From contig CAZWDS010000001.1 in assembly GCA_964632495.1 (NCBI GenBank), forward strand, positions 21,318 through 85,317: a stretch of DNA of 64,000 bases. The letters are read 5' to 3'. Position numbers and translations under genes: made by a program. The stretch is from an uncultured Rhodobacterales bacterium. Lineage in GTDB: Bacteria > Pseudomonadota > Alphaproteobacteria > Rhodobacterales > Rhodobacteraceae. Position 1 is the stretch's first letter. Every line of letters starts with the position of its first letter. The notes beneath the pieces are model-generated. The model worked only from the letters and a program-made list of their open reading frames with translations, was not told the DNA's origin and made no database searches. Positions 1,063 to 61,922 of the stretch are shown piece by piece.

Positions 1063-1071
1063 GTTTATTTC

Positions 1072-5856: not shown

Positions 5857-6633
5857 CTAGCGCGCCTCTACCAAAGGTTTCGGCGAGGCAAAATTGATGA
5901 GGCGCCCGGTGGTATGATCATTCAGCTGGACAAGCGAGCCGCGCCTAGCCGGTGACCCTTGCTGCAACAGAGGGTAACGATTGACGCGCGCAATGATGTC
6001 CAACGGCGCTGTAGGCTGTGGAACGTCTGCAATAACCAGCTCGACTGGTACCACCTCGCTCAGCCGGGATCGAATGCGCTCAAATCGGGCAGCATACTTG
6101 TTAGCGAACTTTGGCGTGCGAGAATGATAGGCGCCCGCTGCTTTCGTCCAATCCCCAAACTCATTGTAAAGGTCACCTAAGAATGATGCAGCGTACCGCG
6201 CATTTGCCATTGGATCGAACATCTCTTCGACTGATTGAAATGCATGGCCATGCCAACGATAATTGATCTGAAAACAGCCTACATCGAAACTACGAGCGCC
6301 TCTTGCAAAGTGTCTATCTACATATGCCTGTGCTTCGCCGCGCGTATCGAACCATTTTCCGGCCCCTTCCATATTGACCGTCCAGGGCCAGGGCAAGAAA
6401 CCCTCAGAGTTTTTTCGCCCAGTTTCTGTCAAAGAAATCGCGCGTAAAACTTCTAGCGGAACGCCACTTTCTTGTGAAATGGCCAGTGCCGCACGTTCGC
6501 AAATCGATGCCCCCGAACGCCGATCAACTTTGGCAATTGAACTACACGGAAAGGCAATCATAAAAACTAATGTCGCAACGGCAGCTATGCGTCGCATTTG
6601 ATTGGAATTAGACATATTCAGCATTCTGCTCAT
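5857..6633 (-). CDS. Flagellum-associated lytic transglycosylase (SLT domain)
   Basis: Signal-like N-terminus, then an SLT catalytic region (GVPLEVLRAISLTETGR...PWPWTVN...GCFQINYRWH). It lies immediately upstream of flhA on the same strand. Confidence 0.8.
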   Translation of the reverse strand: MSRMLNMSNSNQMRRIAAVATLVFMIAFPCSSIAKVDRRSGASICERAALAISQESGVPLEVLRAISLTETGRKNSEGFLPWPWTVNMEGAGKWFDTRGEAQAYVDRHFARGARSFDVGCFQINYRWHGHAFQSVEEMFDPMANARYAASFLGDLYNEFGDWTKAAGAYHSRTPKFANKYAARFERIRSRLSEVVPVELVIADVPQPTAPLDIIARVNRYPLLQQGSPARRGSLVQLNDHTTGRLINFASPKPLVEAR

Positions 6634-6685
6634 ATCAGGTCGCTGATTTTGGCGACTCCGTCATATTTTAGGGCATCGTCTCTTT

Positions 6686-8974: not shown

Positions 8975-9840
8975 GCAGCATCCTGCTTTGTATTTTTCAT
9001 TGCTTCTTCAAGATCCCCGAACGTCGGGCGCACGCCGTGAGGTGCGTTTTGACGCCCGACCTCGATGCATATTGCGGTTGCATGGTTGTGCAAGTTTGCA
9101 ACTAGAACCTCGCGAATCATTTCATAGAAATGGTGATCTTCTTCCGCGACGCCGCCCAACCGAGCCGCAAATGGTCCTGCAAATCCATAGGCTAAAAAGA
9201 CACCCAAGAAGGTTCCAACCAAAGCGCCACCAATCAGCTTTCCCAAGATCTCGGGCGGCTGATCGATCGAGCTCATGGTCTTGATCACACCCAGTACCGC
9301 AGCAACAATGCCTAATGCAGGAAGACCATCTGCCAGAGCTTGCATCGCGTGACTTGAATGCTGCTGGTGGTGCAAGTTCGCTTCCAGGCGCTTGTTCAGG
9401 ACCTCTTCCACTTGCATCGGGTCGTTATAGTTCATCGACGCAGACCGAAGTGTATCGCAGATTATCTCTATTGCTTCATGGTCAGCCAGTATTTTGGGGT
9501 AAGAACTGAAGATCGAAGAGTTTTCCGGTTCTTCGATGTGTTCTTCCAAGCCTACGGGATTCTGGCGAGCCAAACGTAAAAGCTCGAACAAAAGAACCAA
9601 AAGATCGCGATAGTCCTCTGCCTTCCACTTCGCTCCCTTGAAGACTTTGCCGACATCTTTGACCGCCTGCTTTGCACCAGAGCCACTGTTCGAAATCAAG
9701 AACGCCCCAAGCCCGGCCCCCCCGATCATCATCATCGCGAAAGGAAGCGACTTGAGTATAATTGCCATATTTGCACCGGCAGCAAGGTATCCGCCGAAGA
9801 CCATCACGAAAATGATAATTATTCCAATAATTCCGATCAA
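8971..9840 (-). CDS. motA: MotA, flagellar stator proton-channel protein
   Basis: 289 aa. N-terminus MIGIIGIIIIFVMVFGGY, four TM segments, and the conserved C-terminal TM3/4 region (LPALGIVAAVLGVIKTM...GALVGTFLGVFLAYGF). Confidence 0.9.
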   Translation of the reverse strand: MIGIIGIIIIFVMVFGGYLAAGANMAIILKSLPFAMMMIGGAGLGAFLISNSGSGAKQAVKDVGKVFKGAKWKAEDYRDLLVLLFELLRLARQNPVGLEEHIEEPENSSIFSSYPKILADHEAIEIICDTLRSASMNYNDPMQVEEVLNKRLEANLHHQQHSSHAMQALADGLPALGIVAAVLGVIKTMSSIDQPPEILGKLIGGALVGTFLGVFLAYGFAGPFAARLGGVAEEDHHFYEMIREVLVANLHNHATAICIEVGRQNAPHGVRPTFGDLEEAMKNTKQDAA

Positions 9841-9905
9841 AGTCGGCGTTCCCCCGGTGAACGAAAGTTTCGAACCCCTTTTCGCAGACGTCAGTTAACA
9901 ACGCG

Positions 9906-10544
9906 TCACTGTTTCACTGATGGCTCCGATGGATCTGGCACTATTTCACGGGGAACGTCCGCATTCCGCCCAGCCAGAACAACGCTGATCGAATACGCCA
10001 GGTCTGGATCCAGTCCGGCCAAAATTGCAGCAGCAGAATCCGAGCGCATTCGGCCAAGGAAGCCAGCCGCAAAGCTTGGCTCCATCCTCTCGAACAAGGC
10101 AGCGGCTTGTTCTGGCTTCATATTTTCGTATACGGCCGTCAATTGGCCGATGTCGGTTTCCGCCGCTTTGTCCGCTTGCGCCATGGTTGCACGCAAGGTT
10201 TCCTCAGCCACTTCAAGACGTTTTAGATCTTTTGCAACGGCGCCTTCGATAAGTGTCAGGGCTTGAATGCGCGCTTCCAATTCGGCCTCACGCTCGGCCA
10301 CGCGCTCTTCGCGCTCTTTCGTCTCAGCCAAAAGTTTGATCAGATCAGGCGCCAGGTCTTTGACCTCGGTATCAACGACATGCTCGTCGCTCGTATTGGC
10401 TTGAATTTGTTCTTTAAGTTCCAGGGCAATTGCTGCGCCTGTGCCGCTAAGGCGCAGCAACGCAGAACCAATAAGTACCAACGCTACGATCGTAAGAGCA
10501 CCACGGCCCGAAGCCCAGGCCCGTTTGGGCATCTTGCGTTTCAT
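9906..10544 (-). CDS. motE: MotE-family protein (MgtE_N-like repeats; putative periplasmic chaperone)
   Basis: N-terminal anchor/signal, a coiled coil, then MKPEQAAALFERMEPSFAAGFLGRMRSDSAAAILAGLDP, typical of the COG3334/MotE family. Confidence 0.65.
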   Translation of the reverse strand: MKRKMPKRAWASGRGALTIVALVLIGSALLRLSGTGAAIALELKEQIQANTSDEHVVDTEVKDLAPDLIKLLAETKEREERVAEREAELEARIQALTLIEGAVAKDLKRLEVAEETLRATMAQADKAAETDIGQLTAVYENMKPEQAAALFERMEPSFAAGFLGRMRSDSAAAILAGLDPDLAYSISVVLAGRNADVPREIVPDPSEPSVKQ

Positions 10545-10933
10545 TCCGCGGCCTCCTGTAATCCGGTTCGGCGCGTTTGAAACAGCGTTTTGTCCAAAGC
10601 AATCACTTCACCTTCTTCTTCGCAGGTCATCGAAGTTTTCTCGGTATCGACCGGCAAGTCGTGCATCGAAGCGACCAACAATTCCAATCGCTGCGCAACG
10701 CCTTCCGCGCGACCCGTCATCGAATCGAGCGATTCCGCAGACGATGTTGTGGCTGAACGAGCCGTTTCCAAGGCGTTAGTCATGTCATCAACCTGCGATG
10801 ATAAAACAGCAATTGCCCCGCCCACACCTTTCTCAAGATCAGTGAAGCGGCTCAAACGACGCGACAGGACAATGCAGTAAAGACCAGCGCCCAAGGCACC
10901 GGCAATCAGCAAAATATCGGCGATCATCTCCAT
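10541..10933 (-). CDS. 130-aa single-pass membrane coiled-coil protein, unknown function, flagellar operon
   Basis: One N-terminal TM helix (IADILLIAGALGAGLYCIVL), then a helical Ser/Ala/Glu-rich segment. 4-nt overlap with the motE start, and 8 nt downstream of fliL. Confidence 0.55.
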   Translation of the reverse strand: MEMIADILLIAGALGAGLYCIVLSRRLSRFTDLEKGVGGAIAVLSSQVDDMTNALETARSATTSSAESLDSMTGRAEGVAQRLELLVASMHDLPVDTEKTSMTCEEEGEVIALDKTLFQTRRTGLQEAAE

Positions 10934-10941
10934 AGTCGGCC

Positions 10942-11418
10942 TCAGTTCAGTACAAATTCCATTACAAGCAAGTCGCGAACCCGGTCACCGCCTACGACCA
11001 GATCGATGCGTCGGCGCATCTGCGAACGCAGCGTCAAAAGAGCCGACGGATCTTCGATTTCAGCAACCGTCAGGGATTGAAGGTAGGTATTCAGAACATC
11101 CACTACCCGCGGCAGCAATTTTTCGATATCCGATTGGCCGTTTGGATCGACTTCAAGTTCGGCGCGAAACCGAAGATGTCGCCGCTCGGACGGGCCGCCA
11201 ACTGACACCGTCATTGGCTCAACCGGAATAAACGCCAGATCATCACTCAGCATATCGTGCGTAGCGGCTTCTTCTCCACCGCTCCCGCCAAGCATGCCAG
11301 ACGTAAAAGCAAAGGCGCCACCACCACCGACCAAAGCCAAAACAAGCCCAATGACTAAGCCACCACGCTTTTTCTTGGGGGTTTCACCTTCGTCTTCGAT
11401 GTCTTCTTCGCCGGCCAT
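10942..11418 (-). CDS. fliL: FliL, flagellar basal-body-associated protein (paralog 2)
   Basis: Acidic N-terminus and a TM helix. Canonical FliL domain (FIPVEPMTVSV...RHLRFRAELEVD...LLPRVVDVLNTYLQSL...LLVMEFVLN). Confidence 0.85.
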   Translation of the reverse strand: MAGEEDIEDEGETPKKKRGGLVIGLVLALVGGGGAFAFTSGMLGGSGGEEAATHDMLSDDLAFIPVEPMTVSVGGPSERRHLRFRAELEVDPNGQSDIEKLLPRVVDVLNTYLQSLTVAEIEDPSALLTLRSQMRRRIDLVVGGDRVRDLLVMEFVLN

Positions 11419-11455
11419 AAATGCTCCTCTTCCTCTGGTCTTAACCCCATTCTGA

Positions 11456-11470
11456 CTAACCGAATGTTAA
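11456..11470. promoter_or_regulatory. CtrA-box-like motif CTAA-N7-TTAA in the fliL/fliF divergent region
   Basis: Read directly: CTAACCGAATGTTAA. It has one mismatch to TTAA-N7-TTAA. An extra TTAA lies at 11441-11444. Confidence 0.25.
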
Positions 11471-13131
11471 GGCCCCACTGCGATGGTTCATTTGAATTTT
11501 CGATAAACCCGGAGAATCTCTTGGATCAGTTGGTTTCGGTTTGGACAGGTCTCGACTTGCGAAAGCGCGTTACGGTCGTAATTGCGACAGTCTCAATGTT
11601 CGCTGCTGTCTATCTTATGGCCCAAATGGCTTCTAAGCCGCGACTGGCATTGCTATATGCAGGCCTAGATCCGTTGGCTGCTGGTGAAGTTGTAACCGCC
11701 CTGGAAGGTCGCGGTGCTGTTGTCGATATTCGTGGGTCGGCGATCTATGTCGATGCGGCGCAACGCGACGCTCTGCGGTTGGCTCTTGCTGGCGAAGGCC
11801 TGCCTCAGAATGGATCCCAAGGATATGAACTACTGGATTCGCTCAGCGGATTTGGGACAACGGCGCAAATGTTTGATGCGGCTTATTGGCGAGCCAAAGA
11901 AGGCGAACTTGCGCGAACCATAACATCCAATCGGCAATTCGTGGCGGCGCGCGTCCACATATCAAACCCGTCTAGCGATCCGTTTCGCCAAGGCCAGGTC
12001 GGCTCGGCTTCTGTTTCCGTTACATTGGCGTCCGGAAGCATGTCTGCGCAGCAGGCCACGGCCTTGCGCTATCTTGTGGCGTCCGCGATCAGTGGTTTGG
12101 ATCCGGCCAATGTATCCGTCATCGATGGGGCAACTGGGCTTATTCCAAACTCGGACGATCCCACGACGATGGCCTCTGGTGCCAGTGACAATCGCGCGGA
12201 CACGATACGCCAAAGTGTGACCAGGCTTTTGGAAGCGCGTGTTGGGATCGGAAAAGCCGTGGTCGAAGTAACTGTTGATCCGGTCACCATCCGCGAAGAA
12301 ATCACAGAGCGCCGTTTTGAGCCTGACAGTCGCGTGCCCATCAGTTCAAATTCCGAAGAAACGACAACACGGTCTACGAACGCCGGTGGAAACTCCGTCA
12401 CTGTTGCGTCCAACCTGCCAAACGGTGACGCTGGTGGGTCCTCGGGATCGTCGGAAAGCAGTGAAACTCGTTCACGCGAAACGGTGAACTTTGAAGTGTC
12501 CGAAACACAGCGCGCAGTTACCAGCGAACCAGGTTCGGTCAAACGTGTCAGCGTTGCTGTGTTGGTTGACGGCGTTCGCACGACCGCGGCAGATGGAACG
12601 ACCACCTGGGAACCGCGCAGCGAGGCTGAGCTTGGCGATCTTCGCCAACTAGTCACATCGGCGATCGGGTTCGATGAAACGCGCGGCGATCAAGTGACAA
12701 TCCGGACGATGGAATTCGAGCCTTTGCCCGAACTGGCACCATCGCAGCCGATTTCCTTTATGGATCGCTTTGCAATCGACGTTATGGGCTTGGTGCAGAT
12801 GGCCGTCGCAGCGCTTGTATCGCTGATCCTTGGATTGTTTGTAGTCAAGCCAATCCTTACACGGGCACCTGCCCGACCCACGGCGCAACTTCAGGCACCC
12901 GAACAAAGAGATTTAGACGAGAACGTCCTGGGCGACCTTCCTGCGCTTGATGGCGAGATTGGCGGTATTGGCGACTTTGCTCCCCTCGATGACCTGCCCT
13001 CGTTTGATAGTATCCAGGGCGGCGGCGGAGATCCGGCCGAGCGCCTGCGTCAACTCATTGAACAAAAGCAGGACGAAACAGTCGAAGTTCTGAACCAATG
13101 GATGAATGACCCGCAAGAGGCGGCCAGATGA
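11464..13131 (+). CDS. fliF: FliF, flagellar MS-ring protein
   Basis: FliF N-domain (RKRVTVVIATVSMFAAVYLM...LLYAGLDPLAAGEVVTALE...IYVDAAQRDALRLALAGEGLPQ), a C-terminal TM and an acidic tail. An alternative in-frame TTG start at 11521 has a better SD (GGAG at 11511-11514). Confidence 0.9.
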   Translation: MLRPHCDGSFEFSINPENLLDQLVSVWTGLDLRKRVTVVIATVSMFAAVYLMAQMASKPRLALLYAGLDPLAAGEVVTALEGRGAVVDIRGSAIYVDAAQRDALRLALAGEGLPQNGSQGYELLDSLSGFGTTAQMFDAAYWRAKEGELARTITSNRQFVAARVHISNPSSDPFRQGQVGSASVSVTLASGSMSAQQATALRYLVASAISGLDPANVSVIDGATGLIPNSDDPTTMASGASDNRADTIRQSVTRLLEARVGIGKAVVEVTVDPVTIREEITERRFEPDSRVPISSNSEETTTRSTNAGGNSVTVASNLPNGDAGGSSGSSESSETRSRETVNFEVSETQRAVTSEPGSVKRVSVAVLVDGVRTTAADGTTTWEPRSEAELGDLRQLVTSAIGFDETRGDQVTIRTMEFEPLPELAPSQPISFMDRFAIDVMGLVQMAVAALVSLILGLFVVKPILTRAPARPTAQLQAPEQRDLDENVLGDLPALDGEIGGIGDFAPLDDLPSFDSIQGGGGDPAERLRQLIEQKQDETVEVLNQWMNDPQEAAR

Positions 13132-13730
13132 CGCTTCAGAACATTTTGGAGACTTTTGAGACCGAAAGCAGTGCCTCGGTCGCCCTTTCCGGACAACCCG
13201 ATCCGAAGGAACTGGAAGCGATCCGGGCGGAGGCGTTCGAAAGCGGCTATTCTTCTGGCTGGGAAGACGCTCAAAAGGCAGATGGCGCAGCACGTGAACG
13301 TGTGGAAGCAGAATTTGAACGCAACATCCAGAATTTGATCTTTACCTATTCAGAAGCCGTCGATTGCGTACGTGGAGAATTGAAGAGTTTTCTAAGCGCC
13401 ATCATCAACGGCTTCCTCCCCGAGATCGTCCCGGATCTTACGCGCGAGCACGTCCGAAACGAGCTTTTGAAACTGGCAGACGACCTTGTCGAAGCTCCTG
13501 TTGAAATCGTCTGCTCGCCCGACAGCAAGGCGCTTCTGGAAGAGCTTCTTCATTCCAATGCAGCTTTGGAAATTCGCTTGATCGAAGATGGGTCTTTGGC
13601 CGCACGCCAAGTCTACATCCGCATAGCCGAGCGTGAAATCGAAGTGAATGTCACGCCGCTGATCGAAGCATTGCGTGTTCAACTTCGGGCTGTTGCCGAA
13701 GACGTCACAGAAAGGACATCCCATGGCTGA
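13128..13730 (+). CDS. FliH-like flagellar assembly protein
   Basis: 200 aa, with ATGA overlap to the fliF stop. Has the AFESGYSSGWEDAQK motif and a charged helical N-half, as in FliH. Positioned between fliF and fliN. Confidence 0.55.
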   Translation: MTLQNILETFETESSASVALSGQPDPKELEAIRAEAFESGYSSGWEDAQKADGAARERVEAEFERNIQNLIFTYSEAVDCVRGELKSFLSAIINGFLPEIVPDLTREHVRNELLKLADDLVEAPVEIVCSPDSKALLEELLHSNAALEIRLIEDGSLAARQVYIRIAEREIEVNVTPLIEALRVQLRAVAEDVTERTSHG

Positions 13731-14007
13731 AGACCTTAATTTAAGTGGACTGGCCGAGTCGCGTTTTGCACAAGTCCCTATCGAAATAACGATTTCGGTT
13801 GGTATGGCGCGACCGCTTGTCAAAGACCTATTATCGCTGGAAGAAGATGCCATTCTACCTTTGGATCGAACACTTGAAGACCCAGTCGAACTTTTCATCG
13901 GCGACAAACTAATCGGTCGCGGGCAACTTGAAGAAATTGATGGCGAGGGTTCTGGAAAATTAGGCGTACGTATCGTCGAGATCGCCCAACCCAAAGAAAA
14001 CAACTAA
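13723..14007 (+). CDS. fliN: FliN, flagellar C-ring/switch protein
   Basis: SpoA-type domain (VPIEITISVGMARPLVKDLLSLEEDAILPLDRTLEDPVELFIGDKLIGRGQL). ATG at 13723 is preceded by AAAGGA and overlaps the upstream stop. The track ORF start at 13675 is judged too early. Confidence 0.88.
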   Translation: MAEDLNLSGLAESRFAQVPIEITISVGMARPLVKDLLSLEEDAILPLDRTLEDPVELFIGDKLIGRGQLEEIDGEGSGKLGVRIVEIAQPKENN

Positions 14008-14008
14008 A

Positions 14009-14758
14009 GTGCGGTGTGCTTGGTGGTATCAGGGTCTGACCGTCTTTGCCGTGGCTTTCGTGACAATGGTCTGTCTTGCGTTACCAGCCAATGCGCAAGA
14101 TTTCACGCTATCCTTTTCAGAAGACGGATCATTGACCGCGCGATCTGTGCAACTTCTCATTCTGCTCACAGTCCTAAGCCTGGTTCCAGCTCTGGCCATA
14201 ATGTTCACCTGCTTCCCCTTTATGGTGACCGTATTGTCGATCTTGCGGCAAGGAATTGGTCTACAGCAATCTCCGCCCAACATGCTGATTGTCAGCCTGG
14301 CGTTGTTCCTGACATACTTCGTTATGGAACCCGTCTTTTTGTCCGCGTGGCAAAATGGGATAAATCCCCTTCTTGAAGGTCAGATTTCAGGCGAAGCTGC
14401 GGCGGAAGAAACGATTGCCCCTTTTCGCGTTTTCATGATGGGACGCGTGCAGGCAGACACGATGTCAATTTTGGCGGATCTACGTCCTGAAACCTCCAAT
14501 ATCACACCTGAAACAGCGCCTTTATCTGTGCTTGTTCCTTCCTTTCTTCTCAGCGAAATTGAGCGTGCCTTTCAAATTGGCTTTCTGATTTTTCTTCCCT
14601 TTCTCATAATTGATCTAGTTGTAGCGGCTATTCTTATGTCGATGGGAATGATGATGGTTCCACCGGTAATAGTTTCGTTACCCTTCAAACTCGCATTTTT
14701 CGTCGTAGCCGACGGATGGAGTCTTGTTAGCGGCGCACTTGTTCGAAGTTATTTTTGA
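14009..14758 (+). CDS. fliP: FliP, flagellar export apparatus protein
   Basis: Signal-like N-terminus. Conserved FliP motifs (TVLSLVPALAIMFTCFPFMVTVLSILRQGIG, FLPFLIIDLVVAAILMSMGMMMVPP). Confidence 0.93.
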   Translation: MRCAWWYQGLTVFAVAFVTMVCLALPANAQDFTLSFSEDGSLTARSVQLLILLTVLSLVPALAIMFTCFPFMVTVLSILRQGIGLQQSPPNMLIVSLALFLTYFVMEPVFLSAWQNGINPLLEGQISGEAAAEETIAPFRVFMMGRVQADTMSILADLRPETSNITPETAPLSVLVPSFLLSEIERAFQIGFLIFLPFLIIDLVVAAILMSMGMMMVPPVIVSLPFKLAFFVVADGWSLVSGALVRSYF

Positions 14759-35532: not shown

Positions 35533-37386
35533 TTACTTTTGAAGGATATCTCGCATCAAAAGAGGCTCTGACAACAACTCGCCCAAGGTGAAATCAGGGT
35601 TCGTTTCGACAAAGTCGTCTGCCATCTTCAGAGGCATCAGAACCCGATAGCCTTCTGCCAAACCCGTGCTGACCAGATTTGCGTCCGGGCCATCACTTGC
35701 CCAATGGGGGACAGCGACCATCTGGTTCGGCGCCTGCAAAACGCTGCGAAAAGCGTGTAGATACACAATCGTCGGCCCGTCGTATCCTTGCGAAGTGTCC
35801 GCTAAGACATCCATCCGACGCAACTGTGAAATCCACACATCGCTTGCTGAAATAAAGATCGCAAGGCCAAGACCAACACCGGTCGTTCCCAAAGCCAACA
35901 TTCCAACTGGGCCAGTTGAAAAATGTTTTACCCCAGCGATCAGGGCCGTCAGCGCCACGGCAAACAGCACAAAGGTCGACAGGATCTGGTGAACACCCGA
36001 GATACCAGACGGCGTGAGCACAGTTTGCAGGATCCCTGCCACGATCCCGACGACAGCAGCGCCTCCTAGAACAAGACCGGGCCGACTTAGGTTTTCTGTC
36101 AAACGCCAAACTAGAACAACGCACAGCGCCGAGAGCAGTGGCAGGGTTGGCATCAGGTAACGCATATTCAAGCCAAGACCACCGTGCCAAGCGCGAATCA
36201 CAAAGGGAAATGACCAAATGACGACAAATACCAAAATGGTCTGGATGGCTCGACGATGCTTGCCCCATGAGGCGAAGATCAAAAACGACAGTAGGCCCAA
36301 CCACGGCATGCTTTGACCAAGCGCTTTCTTGGGCAGCCCCCAAAACCGCAGCGTCCCATCGGCAGCACGCTCTACACCTGCGCGCGGGTCGATGATGGTC
36401 CTTGCGTCAACGAACAGGGCGATGAAACCCGTGTAGAGGCGATGAAGAACGCGTTGGGCTTCCGGCAGAACAATGGCTGTACCAGCCAATACGATGACAA
36501 CGATGCCAGTTACTAGACGCGGGTTGATCCGAGCCTGCGAAACACGCAGTCCAATCAAACAAGTCAAAACCAATCCGGCTCCAAGTCCAACCACGAGATA
36601 GCCATTTAGCGCGACGGCCCCACCATCCTGACCATAAGAAATCGGATTTGGTGAGCCGAATTTGATCTGATTTGCGATTGCCATGATCACGAAAGCGGGT
36701 GCCAATCCCATGGCACCGCCCAAAATAATTGATACAGGTCGGACCGCCAAAGGAACGGTCAAAAGCACGATCACCGGCAAAAGCAAAACGCTATCAAGAC
36801 GAAAAAGAAGTCCAGCGCCTAGGATCAAACCCGAAATCAATGCGTATCTGAACGCTTTCTCGCCAGCTTCCAAAGCTTTGAGGAACCACAGGAAAGCTGC
36901 GCTAGTGGAAAGAACAGAAACAGCGTGCGGCCACAGGCCAAACGCATACTCGCCTATGAAAGTTCCGAAAAAGAACAGCAAAGCTGCGGCCAAGCCAATG
37001 GATTCATCCTTGAAAAGCTGGATGGTCAAGGCTCGCGTCACAAAGACCGTTGCGGCAATGCAGACCGCGTGAAAGACGAGTATGCCACGTACATCCAATA
37101 CCCCGATCAAACCCGCGCCGACAACTGCACTTCCCACAGGATACTGCGGCACCAGCCCTTCGGTTCCATAAACCAAAAGATCAATCCATCTAAGATCTCG
37201 AGATCGAAACTCCTCAAACCCATTTTCGATAAACAGGCTTTGGGAAGACAAAAGCGTATCAGCGGCCGTCACATAGATCACTTCGTCTATGATGTAGAAC
37301 CCTGTAGACGCAAAGCAGGCGCCAAGGATCAACAAGCCAGCCAAGGCTTTCAGAACCCAAGCGCCTGTTCGGTGAACATCGGTCAT
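35533..37386 (-). CDS. GT-C-fold (ArnT/PMT-like) integral-membrane glycosyltransferase
   Basis: 617 aa with more than 10 predicted TM helices. Asp-Glu motif at the end of TM1 (FYIIDEVIYV), as in GT-C enzymes. Soluble C-terminal ~90 aa. 4-nt overlap with the upstream GT2 gene. Confidence 0.7.
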   Translation of the reverse strand: MTDVHRTGAWVLKALAGLLILGACFASTGFYIIDEVIYVTAADTLLSSQSLFIENGFEEFRSRDLRWIDLLVYGTEGLVPQYPVGSAVVGAGLIGVLDVRGILVFHAVCIAATVFVTRALTIQLFKDESIGLAAALLFFFGTFIGEYAFGLWPHAVSVLSTSAAFLWFLKALEAGEKAFRYALISGLILGAGLLFRLDSVLLLPVIVLLTVPLAVRPVSIILGGAMGLAPAFVIMAIANQIKFGSPNPISYGQDGGAVALNGYLVVGLGAGLVLTCLIGLRVSQARINPRLVTGIVVIVLAGTAIVLPEAQRVLHRLYTGFIALFVDARTIIDPRAGVERAADGTLRFWGLPKKALGQSMPWLGLLSFLIFASWGKHRRAIQTILVFVVIWSFPFVIRAWHGGLGLNMRYLMPTLPLLSALCVVLVWRLTENLSRPGLVLGGAAVVGIVAGILQTVLTPSGISGVHQILSTFVLFAVALTALIAGVKHFSTGPVGMLALGTTGVGLGLAIFISASDVWISQLRRMDVLADTSQGYDGPTIVYLHAFRSVLQAPNQMVAVPHWASDGPDANLVSTGLAEGYRVLMPLKMADDFVETNPDFTLGELLSEPLLMRDILQK

Positions 37387-38339
37387 TTAGTGTCGGATGC
37401 CCTGTCCAACTCCATTTTGAGAAGTCGGCTGCGAATATCTGCCGAAAGAACCCGGTTTGCTGCGATGAGATCCGCAATTAACCCGCCCACAAAGGTGACT
37501 GTGCCTGCCGCAACAAAGGCCGAACCGATGACCAGCGACTGAATGTTGCCGCCGCCCTGACCCATCATATAGAGGACCAGGAAACGGGCAAAAGCTACGA
37601 CGCCGGGGATCATCAGGATCAAGGCAAGCAAGGCCAGAAAGCGGAACGGGCTATAAAGAACCGCCACCCGAAGTATCGTTTTTGAGGACCGCCAAACATA
37701 GCTGCCCATAGATTTGATAAGCCGGGATTCACGTGTCGGATCATTGACGTTAATTGGAACCGAGGTGATCGGGATTCCAAGGCGACCAGCCTGAATAATT
37801 GTTTCCAAGGTATAGGTATATCGATCAAACACATACAACTGGATCGCAGCGTCCCGATGAATAGCCCGAAAACCACTTGGTGCATCGCCAATTTCAGTCC
37901 CACTTGCCACGCGAACAACCCAACTGCCCAACCGTTGCAATGCCTGTTTGATTGGAGAAAAATGTTGAATGGCCGTGATCGGGCGTTCACCGACAACGAT
38001 CTGAGCGTCGCCAGCCAGAATGGGCGCTGTCAGATCGGGAATGCCGCTTGCATCGTATTGGTTGTCGCCGTCCGTATTGATGATGACATCGGCACCTGCA
38101 CGTAGTGCCGCCTCAATTCCAGCCATGAACGCAGAGGCAAGGCCTTGGTTGTGAGAGAGATCCACTATGTGATCAACACCGTGCTCCTTGGCGACTTCAA
38201 TCGTACGGTCTGTCGAGCCGTCATTGATGATTTGCCATTCAACAGCATCAAACCCCGGCACTTCGCGGGGAAGGTCGGCAAGGGTACCAGGAAGTGTTTC
38301 TTCCTCGTTGTGGCAAGGGATTTGAATTATGAGTTTCAT
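37383..38339 (-). CDS. GT2 polyprenyl-phosphate glycosyltransferase (DPM1/ArnC/GtrB-like) with two C-terminal TM helices
   Basis: IQIPCHNEEETL...INDGSTDRT...NTDGDNQYD (DxD) GT-A motifs. C-terminal TM pair (FLALLALILMIPGVVAF; VIGSAFVAAGTVTFVGGLIADLI). Confidence 0.85.
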   Translation of the reverse strand: MKLIIQIPCHNEEETLPGTLADLPREVPGFDAVEWQIINDGSTDRTIEVAKEHGVDHIVDLSHNQGLASAFMAGIEAALRAGADVIINTDGDNQYDASGIPDLTAPILAGDAQIVVGERPITAIQHFSPIKQALQRLGSWVVRVASGTEIGDAPSGFRAIHRDAAIQLYVFDRYTYTLETIIQAGRLGIPITSVPINVNDPTRESRLIKSMGSYVWRSSKTILRVAVLYSPFRFLALLALILMIPGVVAFARFLVLYMMGQGGGNIQSLVIGSAFVAAGTVTFVGGLIADLIAANRVLSADIRSRLLKMELDRASDTK

Positions 38340-38429: not shown

Positions 38430-39359
38430 TCAGTGGTGATGTGTGACCATGTCCCAACGGGCCAGCCAAGCTTCTAAAAGCGGTTGAATGACCCGACATA
38501 CATATCCGAAGCGTGACGAAGGGCGCCGTGGACGCCGATGCTGAAACTGAAGCGTGCCCCAGAACCTGCCTTCTAACGTCAACGGCACGGTCAACTGCGC
38601 CCGCATTTCTTGCTTTGAAAGGTGCTCTAGGATTGCAGGTACCGGCTGTGGGAAGGTCAGCAAGGGCAACTCAAACCGGCCAGCGCTATCAAATCTTAAC
38701 ATGACGGCATTTTCTTCAATGTCGTGAATAACACAATGCGGCGGCAGAGCATCTTCGTGCGGAGTTATGGCGAAGTCCATTTCCATACCAAGTGTCTCGG
38801 AGACGCGGCCACGGCGCGATTCAGCGATGACAACTCCGGTGTGCTTATCTTGGTGCCGCAAGACTTGGACACGGTCATATCCTGACAGAATGCGCATTAA
38901 ACTCAGAATCCGCGAGAAAAGTATGTCGAGGCTTTCCGCGCCTTTCATCCGATCTGACACACGGCTAATGTCCCTTATAAGATCAAGCGCAGATACAGGT
39001 GCATCTGGCTCTTTCAGTTCTAGAACGGTACATTTTCCAGCGTCAAAAACCGAAATGTCCATTTCAACACCAGCAACCGTTACTGGCCCAAGAATCTCTG
39101 GTTTCTCATGAATGTTCGGCAGCGTTTGCGCGTTACGGATACTGTGCAAAAGTTCGGCGCCAACGACTTGCTCGACAGATTTTCCGAAGGTTTCATCGAC
39201 CTGCAAGGCCGGGACAAATTCGTTCAGATTTTCACTGACAAGGGCGACTTTCTCAGTCGACCTCTTAAACCCTATCAAAGCTCCAATCGGTTGAATCCCT
39301 CCAACGTCATAACTTGCCGATACTAGATCTGACATTTGGATTTCCGTGCGAGACTGCAA
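38430..39359 (-). CDS. Phytochrome-like PAS(2)-GAF chromophore-binding-module homolog with no PHY or output domain
   Basis: GGIQPIGALIGF (compare IQPHGAL), LSGYDRVQVLRHQDKHTGVVIAESRR (compare FDRVM.Y.F..D..GEVIAE), FWGTLQFQHRRP (compare LWGLIACHH). 309 aa, ending where PHY normally begins. Confidence 0.75.
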   Translation of the reverse strand: MQSRTEIQMSDLVSASYDVGGIQPIGALIGFKRSTEKVALVSENLNEFVPALQVDETFGKSVEQVVGAELLHSIRNAQTLPNIHEKPEILGPVTVAGVEMDISVFDAGKCTVLELKEPDAPVSALDLIRDISRVSDRMKGAESLDILFSRILSLMRILSGYDRVQVLRHQDKHTGVVIAESRRGRVSETLGMEMDFAITPHEDALPPHCVIHDIEENAVMLRFDSAGRFELPLLTFPQPVPAILEHLSKQEMRAQLTVPLTLEGRFWGTLQFQHRRPRRPSSRFGYVCRVIQPLLEAWLARWDMVTHHH

Positions 39360-39556
39360 TGACCCCAGCGACCATGCTGAATGTACCTTATCTGAAGCTT
39401 TTGGCTTTGCAATTTTTGCGTGCCGTCAAAAATAAAAAGCAACCAAGGCGAGAAGAGCGCGTAAGCTGATATTTTTTGTTTGCATCATTTGCCATTGGAC
39501 TTTTGCGCTTGGCCCTTTCAGCCTGCGACAAAGCAAACAGCCCAAGGGAGCCTGCC

Positions 39557-40234
39557 ATGACTTTTGCGCCCCAGCTGCAAGATGGCGACGTTAAAACAGT
39601 TATGGCGGCAATGTCTGCGCGACCAGCGACAGACACTGTCGCCAAGTTTGTGCCGGGTCCCGGCCTTGTGAAACTGGACATGCAATTTGACATCGAAAAA
39701 TTACGCGATGCTTTGGACGAATGTTTGAAACGGGAAAAGATGATGGGTGGTATGCAAGACGAAGGTTTTGCAGCATTGCCGCTGACACAAAAACCTGGAC
39801 AGACAGAATGGACCGAGAATGATCTATCAGGCCGGTACTGGCTGCGGGCCGATGATAGATACGTCGAAGAACCGCGCGAGGATCTAGTGCCCGAAGTCGC
39901 CTTTTCCGAGTTCAATCCCAAGTTCAAAGGCACATACTTTGAAGCGGTCCATACAGAACTATCAAAGCGGTTCCCCATCGGACGCACCCGCGTCTTGTCA
40001 AAGGGTCTCTATAACTGCAACTCGTGGCACCGCGATCCCGAACCTCGTCTGCACATCCCGGTCATCACAAACCCCGGATCCTTGTTTGTCGTGAACCACC
40101 ATGTCACGCATCTGCCTGCAGATGGCTCGGTCTATTTCACCGACACGCGCGCCTACCACACCGCGCTGAACGGTGGCGAAACACGTCGGGTCCATATCGT
40201 GGCGGCGCTGGCGTATGAACAGGTGACAGAATGA
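39557..40234 (+). CDS. Aspartyl/asparaginyl beta-hydroxylase-family cupin (putative 2OG/Fe(II) oxygenase)
   Basis: NSWHRDPEPRLHIPVITNPGSLFVV...GSVYFTDTRAYHTALNGGETRRVHIV matches the HxD...H facial triad spacing of that family. ATG at 39557 has an AGGGAG SD. The track ORF starts at TTG 39476. Confidence 0.65.
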   Translation: MTFAPQLQDGDVKTVMAAMSARPATDTVAKFVPGPGLVKLDMQFDIEKLRDALDECLKREKMMGGMQDEGFAALPLTQKPGQTEWTENDLSGRYWLRADDRYVEEPREDLVPEVAFSEFNPKFKGTYFEAVHTELSKRFPIGRTRVLSKGLYNCNSWHRDPEPRLHIPVITNPGSLFVVNHHVTHLPADGSVYFTDTRAYHTALNGGETRRVHIVAALAYEQVTE

Positions 40235-41283
40235 ACCACTATGCAGGAGCCGCGCGTGCCAACGGCGCGAACCGACCACGGGTCGACTTGCGCAGCGATA
40301 CGGTCACGCAACCCGACGACGGGATGCGTCGCGCGATGTATGACGCCGAAGTCGGCGATGACGTCTACGGTGACGACCCAACCGTGAACCGTCTGGAAGG
40401 AACGGTGGCCGAACGGCTGGGCAAGGACGCAGCCCTGTTTGTGCCAAGCGGAACAATGAGCAACTTGACTGCCCTTCTGTCCCATTGCGGGCGCGGCGAA
40501 GAAATGATCGTCGGGCGGCAATATCATATTGCGGCGGACGAGGCGGCGGGCAGTTCGGTGCTGGGCGGCATCGCGATCTGCACGATTCCGGTGGAAGCCG
40601 ATGGCGGCCTGTCCGCCGACACCATCACAGCCGAAGTCAAACCCGACGACAGCCACAACCCAATCAGCCGATTGGTCTGTCTGGAAAACACCCACGGCGG
40701 CAAGGTCGTGCCATTGGACCGCATGCAGGACGCTGCGGGTGCAGCGCGTGCCGCCGGGTTATCGCTTCATCTGGATGGGGCGCGGTTTTTCAATGCTGTA
40801 GCCGCGCTTGGATGTTCGCCGACGGAATTGGCTGGCACCGTCGATTCCGTGTCGATCTGCCTGTCCAAGGGCCTTGGCACGCCTGCCGGGTCGGTCCTGT
40901 CTGGCCCCAAAGATCTGATCGCCCGCGCCCGCCGATATCGCAAGATGCTGGGGGGCGGGATGCGACAGGCCGGAGTTTTGGCCGCGGCCGGGCTTTATGC
41001 GCTGGACCACAATTCAGCCCGCCTTGCCCAAGATCATGACCGTGCCGCCGCCCTTGCCAAATCCCTGAATGAGATGCAGGCGGGAGACGTCACACAAGCC
41101 ACCAATATGGTCTTCTTGACGCCCCGTGACGGCGCGAACGACACATTGCGCCACCAACTTGCCGAAGCAGGGATCCTGTTGGGCGGCGGATCAACAGGTG
41201 CGATCCGCTTGGCGCTTCACAAAGATATTGACGACGACGCATTGGACTATTTGATTGCCGCGATGCGCGCGGTCTATGAGTGA
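40231..41283 (+). CDS. ltaE: Low-specificity L-threonine aldolase (PLP-dependent)
   Basis: VDLRSDTVTQP...GDDVYGDDPTVNRLE...FVPSGTMSNL...ICLSKGLGTPAGS (PLP Lys). ATGA overlap with the upstream hydroxylase gene. Confidence 0.85.
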   Translation: MNHYAGAARANGANRPRVDLRSDTVTQPDDGMRRAMYDAEVGDDVYGDDPTVNRLEGTVAERLGKDAALFVPSGTMSNLTALLSHCGRGEEMIVGRQYHIAADEAAGSSVLGGIAICTIPVEADGGLSADTITAEVKPDDSHNPISRLVCLENTHGGKVVPLDRMQDAAGAARAAGLSLHLDGARFFNAVAALGCSPTELAGTVDSVSICLSKGLGTPAGSVLSGPKDLIARARRYRKMLGGGMRQAGVLAAAGLYALDHNSARLAQDHDRAAALAKSLNEMQAGDVTQATNMVFLTPRDGANDTLRHQLAEAGILLGGGSTGAIRLALHKDIDDDALDYLIAAMRAVYE

Positions 41284-58650: not shown

Positions 58651-59253
58651 ATGGGTGTGAAGAAATCTGAACCACGGGCATGGCAGCGGATGTTGTCGGG
58701 GCGGCGGCTGGACTTGCTGGACCCAACACCGGTGGACATCGAGATCGAGGACATCGCGCACGGGTTGGCTTTTGTGGCGCGTTGGAATGGCCAAACACAG
58801 GGCGAGTATCCGTATTCCGTCGCCGAGCATTCGCTATTGGTCGAAGCATTATTTGTCAGGATAGACCCGAAAGCGTCGGCAAAGTGGAAGTTGGCCGCCC
58901 TTTTGCACGATGCGCCTGAATACGTTATCGGAGACATGATTTCGCCTGTGAAAACCGCAGTGGGACCTGGGTATTCGGCATTGGACGACCGATTGGCGGC
59001 AGCTATCCACTTGCGATACGGCCTGCCCGCATCTGTTCCCAAGACAATCAAAGCCAAGATAAAACGGGCGGACAAGATCTCGGCATGGTTGGAAGCTACT
59101 CAGATCGCAGGATTTGACGAAAAAGAAGCCACGCGATTTTTCGGACGCCCGAATGCGTCTCTAACTATGGGGCTATCAATCGTACTGCGTCCTCCACTAG
59201 AGACGCGGCATGCCTATGTTTCTCGTGTGCAAGAGCTTCTCAAAGAGATTTAG
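58651..59253 (+). CDS. HD-domain phosphohydrolase (YfbR-like)
   Basis: RAWQRMLSGRRLDLLDP...IEDIAHGLAFVARWNGQT...SVAEHSLLV...LLHDAPEYVIGDMISPVK. Confidence 0.8.
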   Translation: MGVKKSEPRAWQRMLSGRRLDLLDPTPVDIEIEDIAHGLAFVARWNGQTQGEYPYSVAEHSLLVEALFVRIDPKASAKWKLAALLHDAPEYVIGDMISPVKTAVGPGYSALDDRLAAAIHLRYGLPASVPKTIKAKIKRADKISAWLEATQIAGFDEKEATRFFGRPNASLTMGLSIVLRPPLETRHAYVSRVQELLKEI

Positions 59254-59804
59254 CGCGGAGAACGTTTCGCCAAAATGCGCTGCAAAGTACGACGGTGCAT
59301 ATTCAAGCGTCGCGCAGTTTCGCTGACATTTCGGTCGCACAATTCGTAGACGCGCTGGATATGTTCCCAACGGACACGATCCGCGCTCATTGGATTTTCA
59401 GGCGGTGGTGGAAGCTCGTCATCCGTTGCAAGAAGCGCTGCCGTGACATCGTTGGCATCAGCAGGTTTCGACAGGTAATCTGTCGCGCCGATCTTCACCG
59501 CCGCCACAGCAGTCGCGATTGCGCCATAGCCTGTTAGAACAACAATGCGGCTGTCTTCCCGTCGTTCGCGGATGCGTTCCACTACGTCTAGGCCGTTGCC
59601 GTCTTCCAGGCGCAGATCAACGACGGCATATGCCGGGGGACGGGCCGTTGCGATTGCCGTACCGCCAGCCACAGAATCTGCAGTTTCAACCTCAAACCCA
59701 CGCTTTTCCATTGCACGCGCCAGGCGCCGCAGAAAGGGCTCATCATCATCAACAATCAAAAGAGTGGGGTCTGGCCCTACGTCAGCTGGCATAATATTCC
59801 TCAC
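59250..59804 (-). CDS. regA: RegA/PrrA/ActR global redox response regulator
   Basis: Receiver domain (LLIVDDD...VVDLRLEDGNG) and the near-invariant RegA HTH (CDRNVSETARRLNMHRRTLQRILAKRSPR). Confidence 0.92.
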   Translation of the reverse strand: MRNIMPADVGPDPTLLIVDDDEPFLRRLARAMEKRGFEVETADSVAGGTAIATARPPAYAVVDLRLEDGNGLDVVERIRERREDSRIVVLTGYGAIATAVAAVKIGATDYLSKPADANDVTAALLATDDELPPPPENPMSADRVRWEHIQRVYELCDRNVSETARRLNMHRRTLQRILAKRSPR

Positions 59805-59849
59805 AGCATTTAACGATATCTATTGCGCTGACCCGGATGGGTCAAATCT

Positions 59850-60461
59850 TCAAAGGCTGTTAATCAAGCAAGCCGACTTTTCTGCAATAGTCTCAGCACT
59901 GTCATTTCTGGGGAAAACACCGCCAAATCGGTTCCCGGGAAGCATCAGGTAAGTCCAGGTGGAATGATCCATCAGATAGAACTCTCCCTCGCCTTCGCCC
60001 CTTGCAGCATGCACCTGATAAGCCCTAGTCAGTGCCTTGATCTGTTGATCTGAGCCGGTCAGAGCCGTCATGCGGGGGTGCATGGCGTCAGCATAGCTTG
60101 CAAGTACCTCTGGCGTATCGCGTTCGGGATCAATGGTGATGAAAACCAAACCAACGTCCAGCCCCTCTTGTTCAAGCAAATCCACCACCAAAGCGTTTCG
60201 GGCGACATCGAAGGGGCAAATATCTGGGCAGAAGGTATATCCGAAGTAGATCAGAGATGGACGGTCGAGCACATCTGCGTCGGTCACTGTTTCGCCATCA
60301 GTCGAAACCAATTCAAACGGACCGCCAGTACTGTTACCAGGGCCCGAAGAGATACCGCAAGATGCCAACGCCGAACGCGGAGCGAAACCGACATAGACAG
60401 CCGTTCCGCCAATCAAAACGATCAAGAGCGTGGCAGCCAGAAAAGCGGCAATTTTGGTCAT
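59850..60461 (-). CDS. senC: SenC/PrrC, SCO1-family copper chaperone
   Basis: TM anchor, CPDICP (CxxxC) motif and a downstream DHS His. It lies between regA and regB. Start taken at MTKIAAF; the track ORF extends to GTG 60503. Confidence 0.88.
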   Translation of the reverse strand: MTKIAAFLAATLLIVLIGGTAVYVGFAPRSALASCGISSGPGNSTGGPFELVSTDGETVTDADVLDRPSLIYFGYTFCPDICPFDVARNALVVDLLEQEGLDVGLVFITIDPERDTPEVLASYADAMHPRMTALTGSDQQIKALTRAYQVHAARGEGEGEFYLMDHSTWTYLMLPGNRFGGVFPRNDSAETIAEKSACLINSL

Positions 60462-60545
60462 CTGCCTGTTCCGATCACATGTCGCCATGCATTGAACCTT
60501 CACCCGGAAGAAGAATACAACTTACAAGACTGTGAAAGCGACACA

Positions 60546-61922
60546 ATGACCGACGCCTATGAACCTCACGGCCCGCGTTCCAATTGGGTGCGCCTTAGAA
60601 CGCTGATTGTGCTGCGTTGGATTGCGGTTTTCGGTCAACTCGCCGCCATCACTGTTGCCAGCCGATTGTTCAGTTTGGATCTGAACGTCGGTCTTTGCTT
60701 TCTGGCGATTGGCATTTCGATTGTCGCGAACCTAGTTGCCGTTTTCATCTTTCCTGAAAACAAACGTCTGACCGAAAACGAAGTCACCGGGATGTTGATT
60801 TTTGATATCTTGCAACTGGCGTTCTTGATCTTTCTGACCGGCGGTTTGAACAATCCCTTCGCCTTGCTGATCTTGGCGCCTGTCGCCATTTCTGCCATGG
60901 CTTTGAACACGCGAATAACGATTCTGATTGCGGCGCTTTCCGTCGGTTTAGTGACACTCTTGGTCTTCTTTCACCTGCCTCTCAGAACCCAAGACGGTTT
61001 CATTATGCAAATCCCGGATGTGTTCGAATTTGGCTTTCTGGCTGCAATCATCATCGGTGTTGTTTTCCTTTCGGTCTATGCCGGACGGGTCACAAGCGAA
61101 ATGCACGCGATGTCCGAAGCTTTGGCCGCCACGCAAATGGCCTTGGCGCGCGAACAAAAGCTGACCGATCTGGGTGGCGTTGTGGCCGCGGCGGCTCACG
61201 AGTTGGGGACACCATTGGCGACCATCAAACTTGCCAGTGCTGAACTGATCGAAGAGCTGGAAAGCTCGCCCGAATTGCAAGAAGACGCGCGATTAATACG
61301 GGACCAAGCAGTCAGGTGCCGCGATATTTTAAACGCCATGGGACAAGCCGGCAATGACGATCAACACATCCGTCGCGCGCCAATCGGGGCCGTTGTCCGA
61401 GAGGCTGCCGAACCGCATGCGGATCGTGGCAAGACGGTTCACTATGATATCCGAGCGGCATCCGATGAAGACGATTCTCAACCTGTGATAGACCGGCGTC
61501 CCGAGATCATCCACGGATTGCGAAACCTAGTACAAAACGCTGTCGATTTTGCGCGCAAAAACGTTTGGGTGGATGTGACTTGGGACCAAAAAACCCTGGT
61601 TGTCAGGATCGTCGATGATGGTACCGGATTTCCAGCCAACGTCATCAATCGGATTGGCGATCCCTTCGTAAGCCGGCGACGACGACGGCAGCGCCCCGGA
61701 TACGAAGGGATGGGTCTTGGATTATTTATTGCGAAAACGCTACTTGAACGCGCAGGCGCCGAACTGAGCTTTGCCAACGGACGTGATCAGTTTGAACCAG
61801 ATTCGGGTCCCGGCGAACGGGTGGGCGCGGTAATCGAGGCCCGTTGGCAGCGCGAGTATTTCGCCGAAGCACACGATGCTTCCCGTAGCGCCTTGGGCAA
61901 GAACCTCCCCATTGAGGCTTGA
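60546..61922 (+). CDS. regB: RegB/PrrB redox-sensing histidine kinase
   Basis: Six-TM N-domain, H-box AAAHELGTPLATIKL, redox-box Cys (QAVRCRDIL), N/G boxes (LVQNAVDF; DDGTGF; GMGLGLFIA). The track ORF 60078-61922 has a spurious N-extension across senC. Confidence 0.9.
   Translation: MTDAYEPHGPRSNWVRLRTLIVLRWIAVFGQLAAITVASRLFSLDLNVGLCFLAIGISIVANLVAVFIFPENKRLTENEVTGMLIFDILQLAFLIFLTGGLNNPFALLILAPVAISAMALNTRITILIAALSVGLVTLLVFFHLPLRTQDGFIMQIPDVFEFGFLAAIIIGVVFLSVYAGRVTSEMHAMSEALAATQMALAREQKLTDLGGVVAAAAHELGTPLATIKLASAELIEELESSPELQEDARLIRDQAVRCRDILNAMGQAGNDDQHIRRAPIGAVVREAAEPHADRGKTVHYDIRAASDEDDSQPVIDRRPEIIHGLRNLVQNAVDFARKNVWVDVTWDQKTLVVRIVDDGTGFPANVINRIGDPFVSRRRRRQRPGYEGMGLGLFIAKTLLERAGAELSFANGRDQFEPDSGPGERVGAVIEARWQREYFAEAHDASRSALGKNLPIEA

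Follow-up and report, generated by a model that had tools for sequence, protein, structure and literature searches.

Our results show that a gene on the reverse strand of the window, the whole 64,000-nucleotide stretch of DNA from an uncultured Rhodobacterales bacterium analyzed here, encodes a degenerate phytochrome derivative, probably without a chromophore, whose minimal architecture is new: a PAS_2 domain is directly followed by a GAF domain and a long C-terminal helix. The identity of this PAS-GAF protein as a whole can be stated with high confidence, and we lean, by a little, toward regarding it as a light-independent protein-interaction scaffold derived from phytochrome. Phytochromes are usually taken as light sensors with a nearly invariant pocket; the short family to which the protein belongs represents the opposite fate, a natural "pseudo-receptor" in which selection has maintained the PAS-GAF fold long past the loss of pigment site, PHY tongue, and output. 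Such proteins could show through which of its surfaces the phytochrome core takes part in light-independent protein-protein signaling, and they offer compact scaffolds, free of pigment by nature and presumably knotted, for work on folding and engineering, with a significance that is limited by their narrow taxonomic range, a single group of marine bacteria (Paracoccaceae).

Gene and domain organization

The gene lies in an intact open reading frame (ORF) at 38430..39359 on the reverse strand, which counts 309 amino acids from a TTG codon in the ORF finder list. The true start is almost certainly the ATG at 39335, giving a product of 301 amino acids, because homologs begin at the equivalent ATG and because the 5' leader and this ATG are conserved in DNA alignments. 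Nine clusters of homologs recovered by a word-indexed protein search (285 to 301 amino acids, down to 36% identity) start at the equivalent of this ATG, and the eight residues added by the TTG at 39359 are probably not translated. The gene and its parts are as follows.

38430..39335, reverse strand: PAS-GAF coding sequence, 301 amino acids, with ATG at 39335 and stop codon TGA at 38430-38432
39015..39302, reverse strand: PAS_2 domain, residues 12-107 of the 301 (Pfam PF08446)
38529..38930, reverse strand: GAF domain with degenerate bilin pocket, residues 136-269 (Pfam PF01590)
38439..38516, reverse strand: long C-terminal helix, residues 274-299 (AlphaFold2 secondary structure and conservation)

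The protein retains the phytochrome PAS-GAF fold

A previous reading made from the DNA without database searches (the sequence-only reading) had described a phytochrome-type PAS-GAF module and had quoted the strings GGIQPIGAL, GYDRVQVLRHQDKHTGVVIAE, and FWGTLQFQH, all of which are present in the ORF. The assignment is borne out by Pfam, in which both domains score above their cut-offs: PAS_2 (PF08446), which covers residues 20-115 of the 309-residue ORF, with 39.9 bits (E 7.6e-10; cut-off 21.4) and, directly after it, GAF (PF01590) with 26.5 bits against 22.4 (E 1e-5; residues 144-277 of the same ORF). The PAS_2 region contains the IQP knot motif at residues 14-16 and the conserved helix bearing H64, R67, and N68. 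When the protein was compared with the sequences of the PDB by phmmer, 98 distinct phytochrome-type chains were matched, and residues 20-280 corresponded to residues 22-285 of the Agp2 photosensory module with an E value of about 1e-19. The possibility that only a generic GAF domain is present, which the sequence-only reading had named as grounds for abandoning its proposal, was thus rejected in view of the significant PAS_2 match and of an alignment with the chromophore-binding domains of phytochromes that spans the entire protein.

The AlphaFold2 model (mean predicted local distance difference test score [pLDDT] 87.6; predicted template modeling score 0.85) shows a confident phytochrome PAS-GAF fold, and Foldseek returned template modeling (TM) scores of 0.75 to 0.83 over the whole length against PAS-GAF structures from bacteriophytochromes and plants, one example being 4E04_A (0.82/0.81 across 301 columns). 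In the knot region, the Gln of IQP is invariant in 34 of 34 short sequences, the lasso is of similar length, and residues 11-20 are modeled with a pLDDT of 88. By PAS_2, GAF, and three-dimensional similarity, the protein belongs to the phytochrome PAS-GAF superfamily at the level of the fold.

The sequence-only reading was also right that the protein stops where PHY and kinase would begin. PHY (PF00360) is not matched by Pfam even at E<=10, nor does Pfam detect an output domain (histidine kinase, GGDEF, or similar), and in the model the protein terminates at residue 301 with the last GAF helix. The C-terminal helix (274-299) occupies the place where the PHY-connecting spine would continue in phytochromes, and it carries the family-specific conserved residues R275, P285, L287, and L291.

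The best match in both sequence and structure across PAS-GAF is to bacteriophytochromes of the Agp2 (bathy) type, such as Agp2 of Agrobacterium fabrum (PDB 6G1Y). Agp2-type phytochromes and the window protein have in common the motifs IQP, S-x-N, H..RNA, GYDRV, AE, and WG, but the window protein is without PHY, kinase, receiver, and N-terminal Cys, nine of ten pocket features are replaced, and the extension before IQP is 13 residues long versus 21 to 42 in full-length hits. Engineered PAS-GAF fragments and near-infrared fluorescent proteins (PDB 4E04, 2O9B, 5VIK) have the same two-domain extent and fold (TM score <=0.82); these are laboratory truncations that bind biliverdin covalently, whereas the window protein is natural and without the binding residues.

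The bilin pocket is not retained

We scored ten signature features of the bilin pocket (Agp2 numbering: N-terminal Cys, Y165, D196, I197, P198, R211, R242, H248, Y251, and H278), one of which, Pro198, is retained in the window protein. In the GAF pocket, Y165 is replaced by L, D196 by I, R242 by P, H248 by I, Y251 by H, and H278 by Q, and the position of R211 is a C or a gap, depending on the alignment. Among the hits of an exhaustive hidden Markov model (HMM) search, all ten features are present in 73 of the 89 proteins of at least 700 amino acids, and nine or more in 86 of them; at most four are present in 37 of the 40 hits of 320 amino acids or less, the three exceptions being contig-truncated fragments of ordinary phytochromes.

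The individual sites agree with this picture. As the sequence-only reading had stated, there is no biliverdin-attachment Cys, either in the 13 residues before IQP or, when the eight further codons back to the upstream stop are included, in 21; a Cys N-terminal to PAS is present in 87/89 of the full-length hits. The same reading had correctly reported the absence of the DIP motif and of a Cys-His pair, in each case with the wrong register. PASDIP aligns not with FAITPH but with DFAITP, in which the Asp is replaced by Ile (DrBphP D207, Agp2 D196; retained by 88/89 full-length hits), and the Cys-His site of Cph1 and plants (Cph1 C259-H260; Agp2 I247-H248) corresponds not to LEH but to the Ala-Ile of PAIL, so that neither Cys nor His stands there. 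The D-ring histidine (Agp2 H278, DrBphP H290) is Gln in the window protein, and the His that is retained is the adjacent H279. Against the NCBIfam BphP equivalog model NF041576, the protein scores 32 bits versus a cut-off of 1040. Judged by the attachment Cys, the DIP motif, the pocket His, Tyr, and Arg residues, PHY, the output, and the equivalog score, the protein is not a bacteriophytochrome photoreceptor; we infer that it is light-blind and bilin-free. This is a warning against labeling proteins with PAS_2 and GAF domains as photoreceptors.

The variation within the short family is informative as to what has become of the pocket. Mean conservation is 0.32 at pocket positions versus 0.45 elsewhere (Mann-Whitney p=0.004), and in full-length phytochromes the pocket positions are the most conserved (0.82 versus 0.47, p=2e-6). 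Because the former pocket positions differ among members and show the lowest conservation in the protein, the pocket appears to have been abandoned rather than retuned to a new conserved ligand. If so, the old pocket would have been free to vary, and hence there would be no conserved site for a replacement ligand. The sequence-only reading had left two readings open, and these figures favor its repurposed scaffold acting through protein-protein contacts and speak against its sensor with a non-covalent or alternative ligand in the pocket. That the protein is an interaction scaffold and not a pocket-ligand sensor is nevertheless, in our estimate, about as likely as not.

A residual sensor, in which a bilin, another tetrapyrrole, or a small molecule would be bound non-covalently in the GAF pocket and signaled to a partner through a change of conformation, is improbable. 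The fold and the pocket-forming secondary structure are kept according to AlphaFold2 and Foldseek, the Arg-rich motifs AESRRG and FQHRRPR are conserved in the closest sub-clade, and GAF domains are generic small-molecule binders, all of which would suit such a sensor. On the other hand, the attachment Cys, the DIP Asp, the two His of the pocket, the two Arg that anchor the propionates, and the Tyr triad have all given way to other residues, the pocket varies from member to member as described above, and the two Arg-rich motifs are not conserved clade-wide. No heme oxygenase was found among the 20 window ORFs tested, which is weak evidence and concerns the window only.

A redox function can be considered by analogy with RpBphP4 of Rhodopseudomonas palustris ("achromo"), which is reported to be likewise a phytochrome homolog without the attachment Cys. 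RpBphP4 is said to have lost light sensing and to remain a functional gene, to have turned into a redox sensor, and reportedly to keep its PHY domain and histidine-kinase output. The window protein, unlike RpBphP4, is without PHY and kinase, and no conserved redox-active Cys pair is evident. It could act as a thiol redox sensor of the RpBphP4 kind via a Cys on the C-terminal helix, and Cys280 (in YVCR) is indeed present in 10 of 15 aligned clade members; yet the other five have S, L, or F there, a second conserved Cys is lacking, and there is no kinase output to turn a redox change into a signal. We regard this alternative as very improbable.

A short family under purifying selection

In the word-indexed search, short homologs scored at least 234 bits and ordinary phytochromes at most 102 bits. 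Among the 2412 hits that an exhaustive profile search returned at E<=1e-3 were about 25 more short full-length clusters of 278 to 314 amino acids. About 30 clusters of this length range form one clade, and homologs of this length have identities from 99% down to about 25%. In a neighbor-joining tree, the confirmed positional orthologs fall within a single clade that comprises 29 sequences, all of them short, subject to the caveat of long-branch attraction, which suggests that the short PAS-GAF family had a single origin. The nearest full-length relatives are proteins of about 820 to 860 amino acids with the Agp2-type architecture PAS_2-GAF-PHY-HWE_HK-REC. The window protein would be descended, in Paracoccaceae only, from the chromophore-binding PAS-GAF region of a bacteriophytochrome of the Agp2 type, a "pseudo-phytochrome" that has lost PHY, kinase, receiver, attachment Cys, and nine of the ten pocket features and kept the PAS-GAF fold.

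The carriers that bear a name, a distribution that the sequence-only reading had proposed to trace, are all metagenome-assembled genomes of Paracoccaceae: CBDDII010000003.1 and MGR3514746.1, both labeled "Paracoccaceae bacterium," and Silicimonas sp. MCV6591689.1. GTDB genomes scanned with a narrow alignment and JGI metagenomes scanned with the clade alignment gave no matches, and a third word-indexed protein search recovered only two of the distant short forms, both on tiny contigs. At NCBI, the short-family proteins are labeled "hypothetical protein," and one JGI record is labeled bacteriophytochrome kinase. The positional ortholog P0184 (L015 10001-10864), in which the DIP loop is deleted, has no Pfam match despite an E value of 8e-86 with the family HMM, and standard annotation therefore misses members of this kind entirely. 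A full-text literature search of incomplete coverage turned up no account of any natural PAS-GAF family that has no output and a degenerate pocket, which fits the earlier remark that such modules are poorly characterized.

The PAS-GAF gene is intact and under purifying selection, though fast-evolving. The ratio of nonsynonymous to synonymous substitutions (dN/dS, Nei-Gojobori) is 0.18 to 0.21 for this gene and 0.02 to 0.12, over the same genome pairs, for its neighbors encoding the glycosyltransferase GT2, the 225-amino-acid protein p225, the aldolase LtaE, the transporter permease, and a 617-amino-acid membrane protein. It is the fastest-evolving gene of its neighborhood, at 3 to 8 times the rate of its neighbors: PAS-GAF proteins are 54 to 64% identical in comparisons where GT2, p225, and LtaE reach 89 to 96%, and 30 to 42% identical where the neighbors are at 55 to 87% and the permease at 76 to 86%.

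Such a rate (30 to 64% identity versus 55 to 96% for neighbors), together with the fact that some orthologs are beyond Pfam recognition, might suggest a functionless, decaying relic or a recent truncation of a bphP gene, the latter having been named by the sequence-only reading as the finding that would overturn its proposal. Both are exceedingly improbable. The ORFs are intact and of constant length in about 30 clusters, dN/dS is about 0.2, the start, the leader, and a promoter-like element are conserved, and so are the fold core and the knot motif. When nine full-length relatives were used as tblastn queries, no PHY or kinase remnant was found in the window or in 15 related loci, and the relatives matched the PAS-GAF loci solely via their residues ~20-320; downstream of the PAS-GAF stop codon, the next gene starts after about 90 bp, and nothing PHY-like or kinase-like follows. 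A recent truncation or pseudogene was rejected on the basis of the missing remnant, the constant length, and the dN/dS ratio.

Natural reductions of the PAS-GAF-PHY photosensory module are known from knotless phytochromes and cyanobacteriochromes, which drop PAS, or PAS and PHY, and keep the bilin-binding GAF domain and outputs (PMC11880981). The window protein, unlike these, keeps PAS and GAF and drops bilin binding and all output.

Conserved surfaces suggest a protein-interaction module

Family-specific conservation falls on three elements: the PAS helix (H64, R67, and N68), the first GAF helix (S115, K/R121, D122, and D128), and the segment leading into and along the C-terminal helix (R270, P272, R275, P285, L287, and L291). 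By homology, the first GAF helix and C-terminal helix elements would correspond to parts of the helical-bundle dimer interface of bacteriophytochromes. Because the family-specific conservation lies on helices homologous to this interface, we propose that the protein most likely acts as a dimeric protein-protein interaction module, either a regulator or an adaptor. There is a likeness in RpBphP2 and RpBphP3 of R. palustris, in that a phytochrome scaffold is needed for regulation independent of light-quality sensing; in the summary of Fixen et al. 2014 given in PMC6879726, they are required for low-light LH4 regulation and light sensing is dispensable. The difference is that RpBphP2 and RpBphP3 are full-length, bilin-competent photoreceptors with kinase outputs.

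The same conservation would also be expected of a trans-acting partner, the main alternative, though an unlikely one, in which the protein would use the helical bundle of GAF to form a heterodimer with a protein encoded elsewhere, be it a full-length phytochrome or a histidine kinase devoid of a sensor domain, and would tune its activity. It would imply, with a probability just as low, a "split" or dominant-negative phytochrome that is functionally unlinked to the transporter operon described below. Apart from the conserved helices, this alternative draws on the HWE-kinase phytochromes from which the family comes, on a distant short PAS-GAF protein, P0070, whose gene is flanked by those for a single-domain response regulator and for a REC-HisKA-HATPase protein that lacks a sensor domain, and on locus L012, in which a single-domain response regulator gene divergently adjoins the PAS-GAF gene. 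However, P0070 lies outside the clade of the window protein, two-component neighbors occur in 1 of 9 placed orthologous loci, and the sole kinase or phytochrome in the 64-kb window is a RegB-like kinase about 21 kb away.

Genomic context and the transporter operon

The neighborhood of the PAS-GAF gene comprises the following features, of which the proteins were assigned by Pfam and NCBIfam.

39385..39415, reverse strand: promoter-like element, AAATTGCAA, upstream of the PAS-GAF gene (DNA alignment)
35533..38339, reverse strand: variable insert of two genes (GT2 and 617-amino-acid membrane protein) between the PAS-GAF gene and the transporter operon
37383-38339, reverse strand: GT2 polyprenyl-phosphate-type glycosyltransferase
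35533-37386, reverse strand: 617-amino-acid GT-C-like membrane protein (LA_3751/3752 family)
35476..35523, reverse strand: operator-like inverted repeat, CTTGTCAGAAT-N23-GGAAATTCTGCAAG, preceding the gene for the TupB-like permease
32382..35463, reverse strand: TupABC-like oxyanion transporter operon, the conserved downstream neighbor of the PAS-GAF gene
34756-35463, reverse strand: TupB-like permease
34059-34769, reverse strand: ATP-binding cassette (ABC) ATPase
33257-34078, reverse strand: TupA-like binding protein (PBP_like_2)
32382-33260, reverse strand: HTH_17/PBP_like regulator (TunR-like)

The promoter-like element consists of a -35-like TTGCAA (39407-39412), a 16-nucleotide spacer, and a -10-like TAAGGT (39385-39390), and its position and sequence are conserved in 9/11 aligned loci; its 9-mer has one occurrence in the window, a count that carries no significance by itself. 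In each of the nine loci long enough to be placed (the window, L009, L006, L007, L004 [= L008], L005, L010, L012, and L015), the PAS-GAF gene lies just upstream, on the same strand, of the run of permease, ATPase, PBP_like_2, and HTH_17/PBP_like genes. The upstream flank has at least five arrangements across loci, namely, p225 with an LtaE-type aldolase, a rhodanese, a methyltransferase with DnaK/DnaJ, a single-domain response regulator, and ABC exporters. The GT2/GT-C insert is missing in L005, L010, and L015, and GT2 alone is present in L004, L007, and L012; upstream of GT2, an element AATTGTCGTCACAATCG is strongly conserved in every locus that carries this gene.

The operator-like element of the permease and its leader are conserved in every locus of the family, whatever gene precedes the permease. 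The general form of the inverted repeat is TGCAnnnTTTCC ... GGAAAnnnTGCA, and inverted repeats akin to it precede permease homologs in the unrelated metagenome loci L019, L020, L021, L025, L030, L066, and L092. The repeat is a candidate operator of the TunR-like HTH_17/PBP_like regulator encoded at the end of the operon. An operator common to the PAS-GAF promoter and the transporter, both of which have GGAAA..TGCA-like strings, was considered and rejected, because GGAAA is present in 2 of 7 independent PAS-GAF upstream regions with a spacing that is off by 2 nucleotides and because the conserved core A[A/G]TTGCAA is simply -35-like. Between the genes, an Rfam search for riboswitches returned only a tRNA for the whole window, and a terminator scan remained at background level.

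The TupABC-like operon with its TunR-like regulator is the only persistent genomic partner of the PAS-GAF gene. The leading guess for the protein's partner, if a weak one that is on balance unlikely to be right, is this regulator or the transporter. The alternative partner would be encoded elsewhere in the genome and would be either a histidine kinase with no sensor or a full-length phytochrome. We further consider, as quite unlikely, that the knotted chromophore-binding domain, without pigment, PHY, or kinase, has been reused as a light-independent regulatory subunit, either in the control of oxyanion uptake or as the detachable half of a "split" phytochrome. The first form, if true, would mean that tungstate- or molybdate-type uptake is controlled via the TunR-like regulator or the ABC ATPase; the second, that PAS-GAF docks onto sensor-less kinases. 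Either form, if true, would be an undescribed recycling of a photoreceptor fold, and the fast evolution of the gene would reflect coevolution with its partner.

Several points weigh against the interaction-scaffold interpretation or its link to the transporter. A PAS-GAF relative was found, at permissive HMM thresholds, in none of 80 other loci with permeases 57 to 77% identical, and the permease has its own conserved operator/promoter downstream of the PAS-GAF gene; the transporter thus does not need the PAS-GAF protein. The GT2/GT-C pair can sit between the PAS-GAF gene and the operon. The adjacency is in itself weak evidence, because synteny in the downstream block runs on for over 10 kb past the operon, and the link may be one of inherited gene order only. 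As for the protein itself, the conserved residues were assigned to a "dimer interface" by homology to phytochrome structures and not from coordinates, the alignment given to AlphaFold contained true phytochromes, with a possible bias of the model toward their fold, and dS is near saturation, so that the dN/dS values are approximate. The PAS-GAF protein could act on the transporter system, or it could have nothing to do with it.

Two further candidates were set aside at these loci. A role of the PAS-GAF protein as an obligatory subunit of the TupABC-like operon is unsupported, given the operator of the operon and the 80 permease loci without the gene. In L016, a 283-amino-acid ORF upstream of a 76%-identical permease, considered as a strongly diverged member of the family, was found to be an Arg/Ala/Gly-rich wrong-frame artifact without HMM signal.

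Other reduced or degenerate phytochrome-type proteins

The searches also brought up other proteins of unusual composition. P0070 (L013 8917-9831 and L014 1682-2596) is a 304-amino-acid stand-alone PAS-GAF protein; in its pocket, Y205, R242, Y251, and HH are kept, and there is no Cys and no DIP. Together with the flanking REC-HisKA-HATPase protein and response regulator, it looks like a "split" phytochrome-type two-component system. P0170-P0178 include several proteins of ~486 to 506 amino acids with PAS_2-GAF-PHY and no output domain, some of them on megabase-size contigs, and appear to be natural phytochromes reduced to the photosensory module. P0112 (844 amino acids, PAS-GAF-PHY-HWE_HK-REC) has no N-terminal Cys, 5 of the 10 pocket features, and the motifs PALDLS and FQH, and could be either a full-length relative that lacks a chromophore or a transitional form leading to the short family.

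Other features of the window

On the forward strand beyond the PAS-GAF promoter lies the gene for p225 (39557-40234), which belongs to no recognized family, has only a sub-threshold match to Asp/Arg-hydroxylases, and is 83 to 92% conserved across loci. Its end overlaps by 4 nucleotides the gene for a GntG/LtaE-type pyridoxal phosphate-dependent aldolase (40231-41283, forward strand), which suggests a translationally coupled pair, possibly in beta-hydroxy amino-acid metabolism. Directly beyond the transporter operon, a giant RTX/Laminin_G repeat protein of 1525 to 1572 amino acids is encoded (27652-32331 in the window, forward strand), followed by a CMD-family protein and IlvD; it is also found in L004, L010, and L015. 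At 59250-61922, genes for a RegA-like response regulator (REC and Fis-type helix-turn-helix), SenC/SCO1, and the RegB-like kinase (six transmembrane segments, PilS-like, with HisKA and HATPase) together constitute a PrrBCA/RegBA-type redox two-component cluster. This cluster, the giant RTX/LamG protein, and the flagellar genes described next fit what a Paracoccaceae chromosome would carry. Flagellar genes for FlgH, a FliR-type export protein, FlhA/FHIPEP, FliF, FliP, and SLT occupy 340-14758, and among them are two ORFs without a Pfam match, one of 762 amino acids (6686-8974) and one of 200 amino acids (13128-13730).

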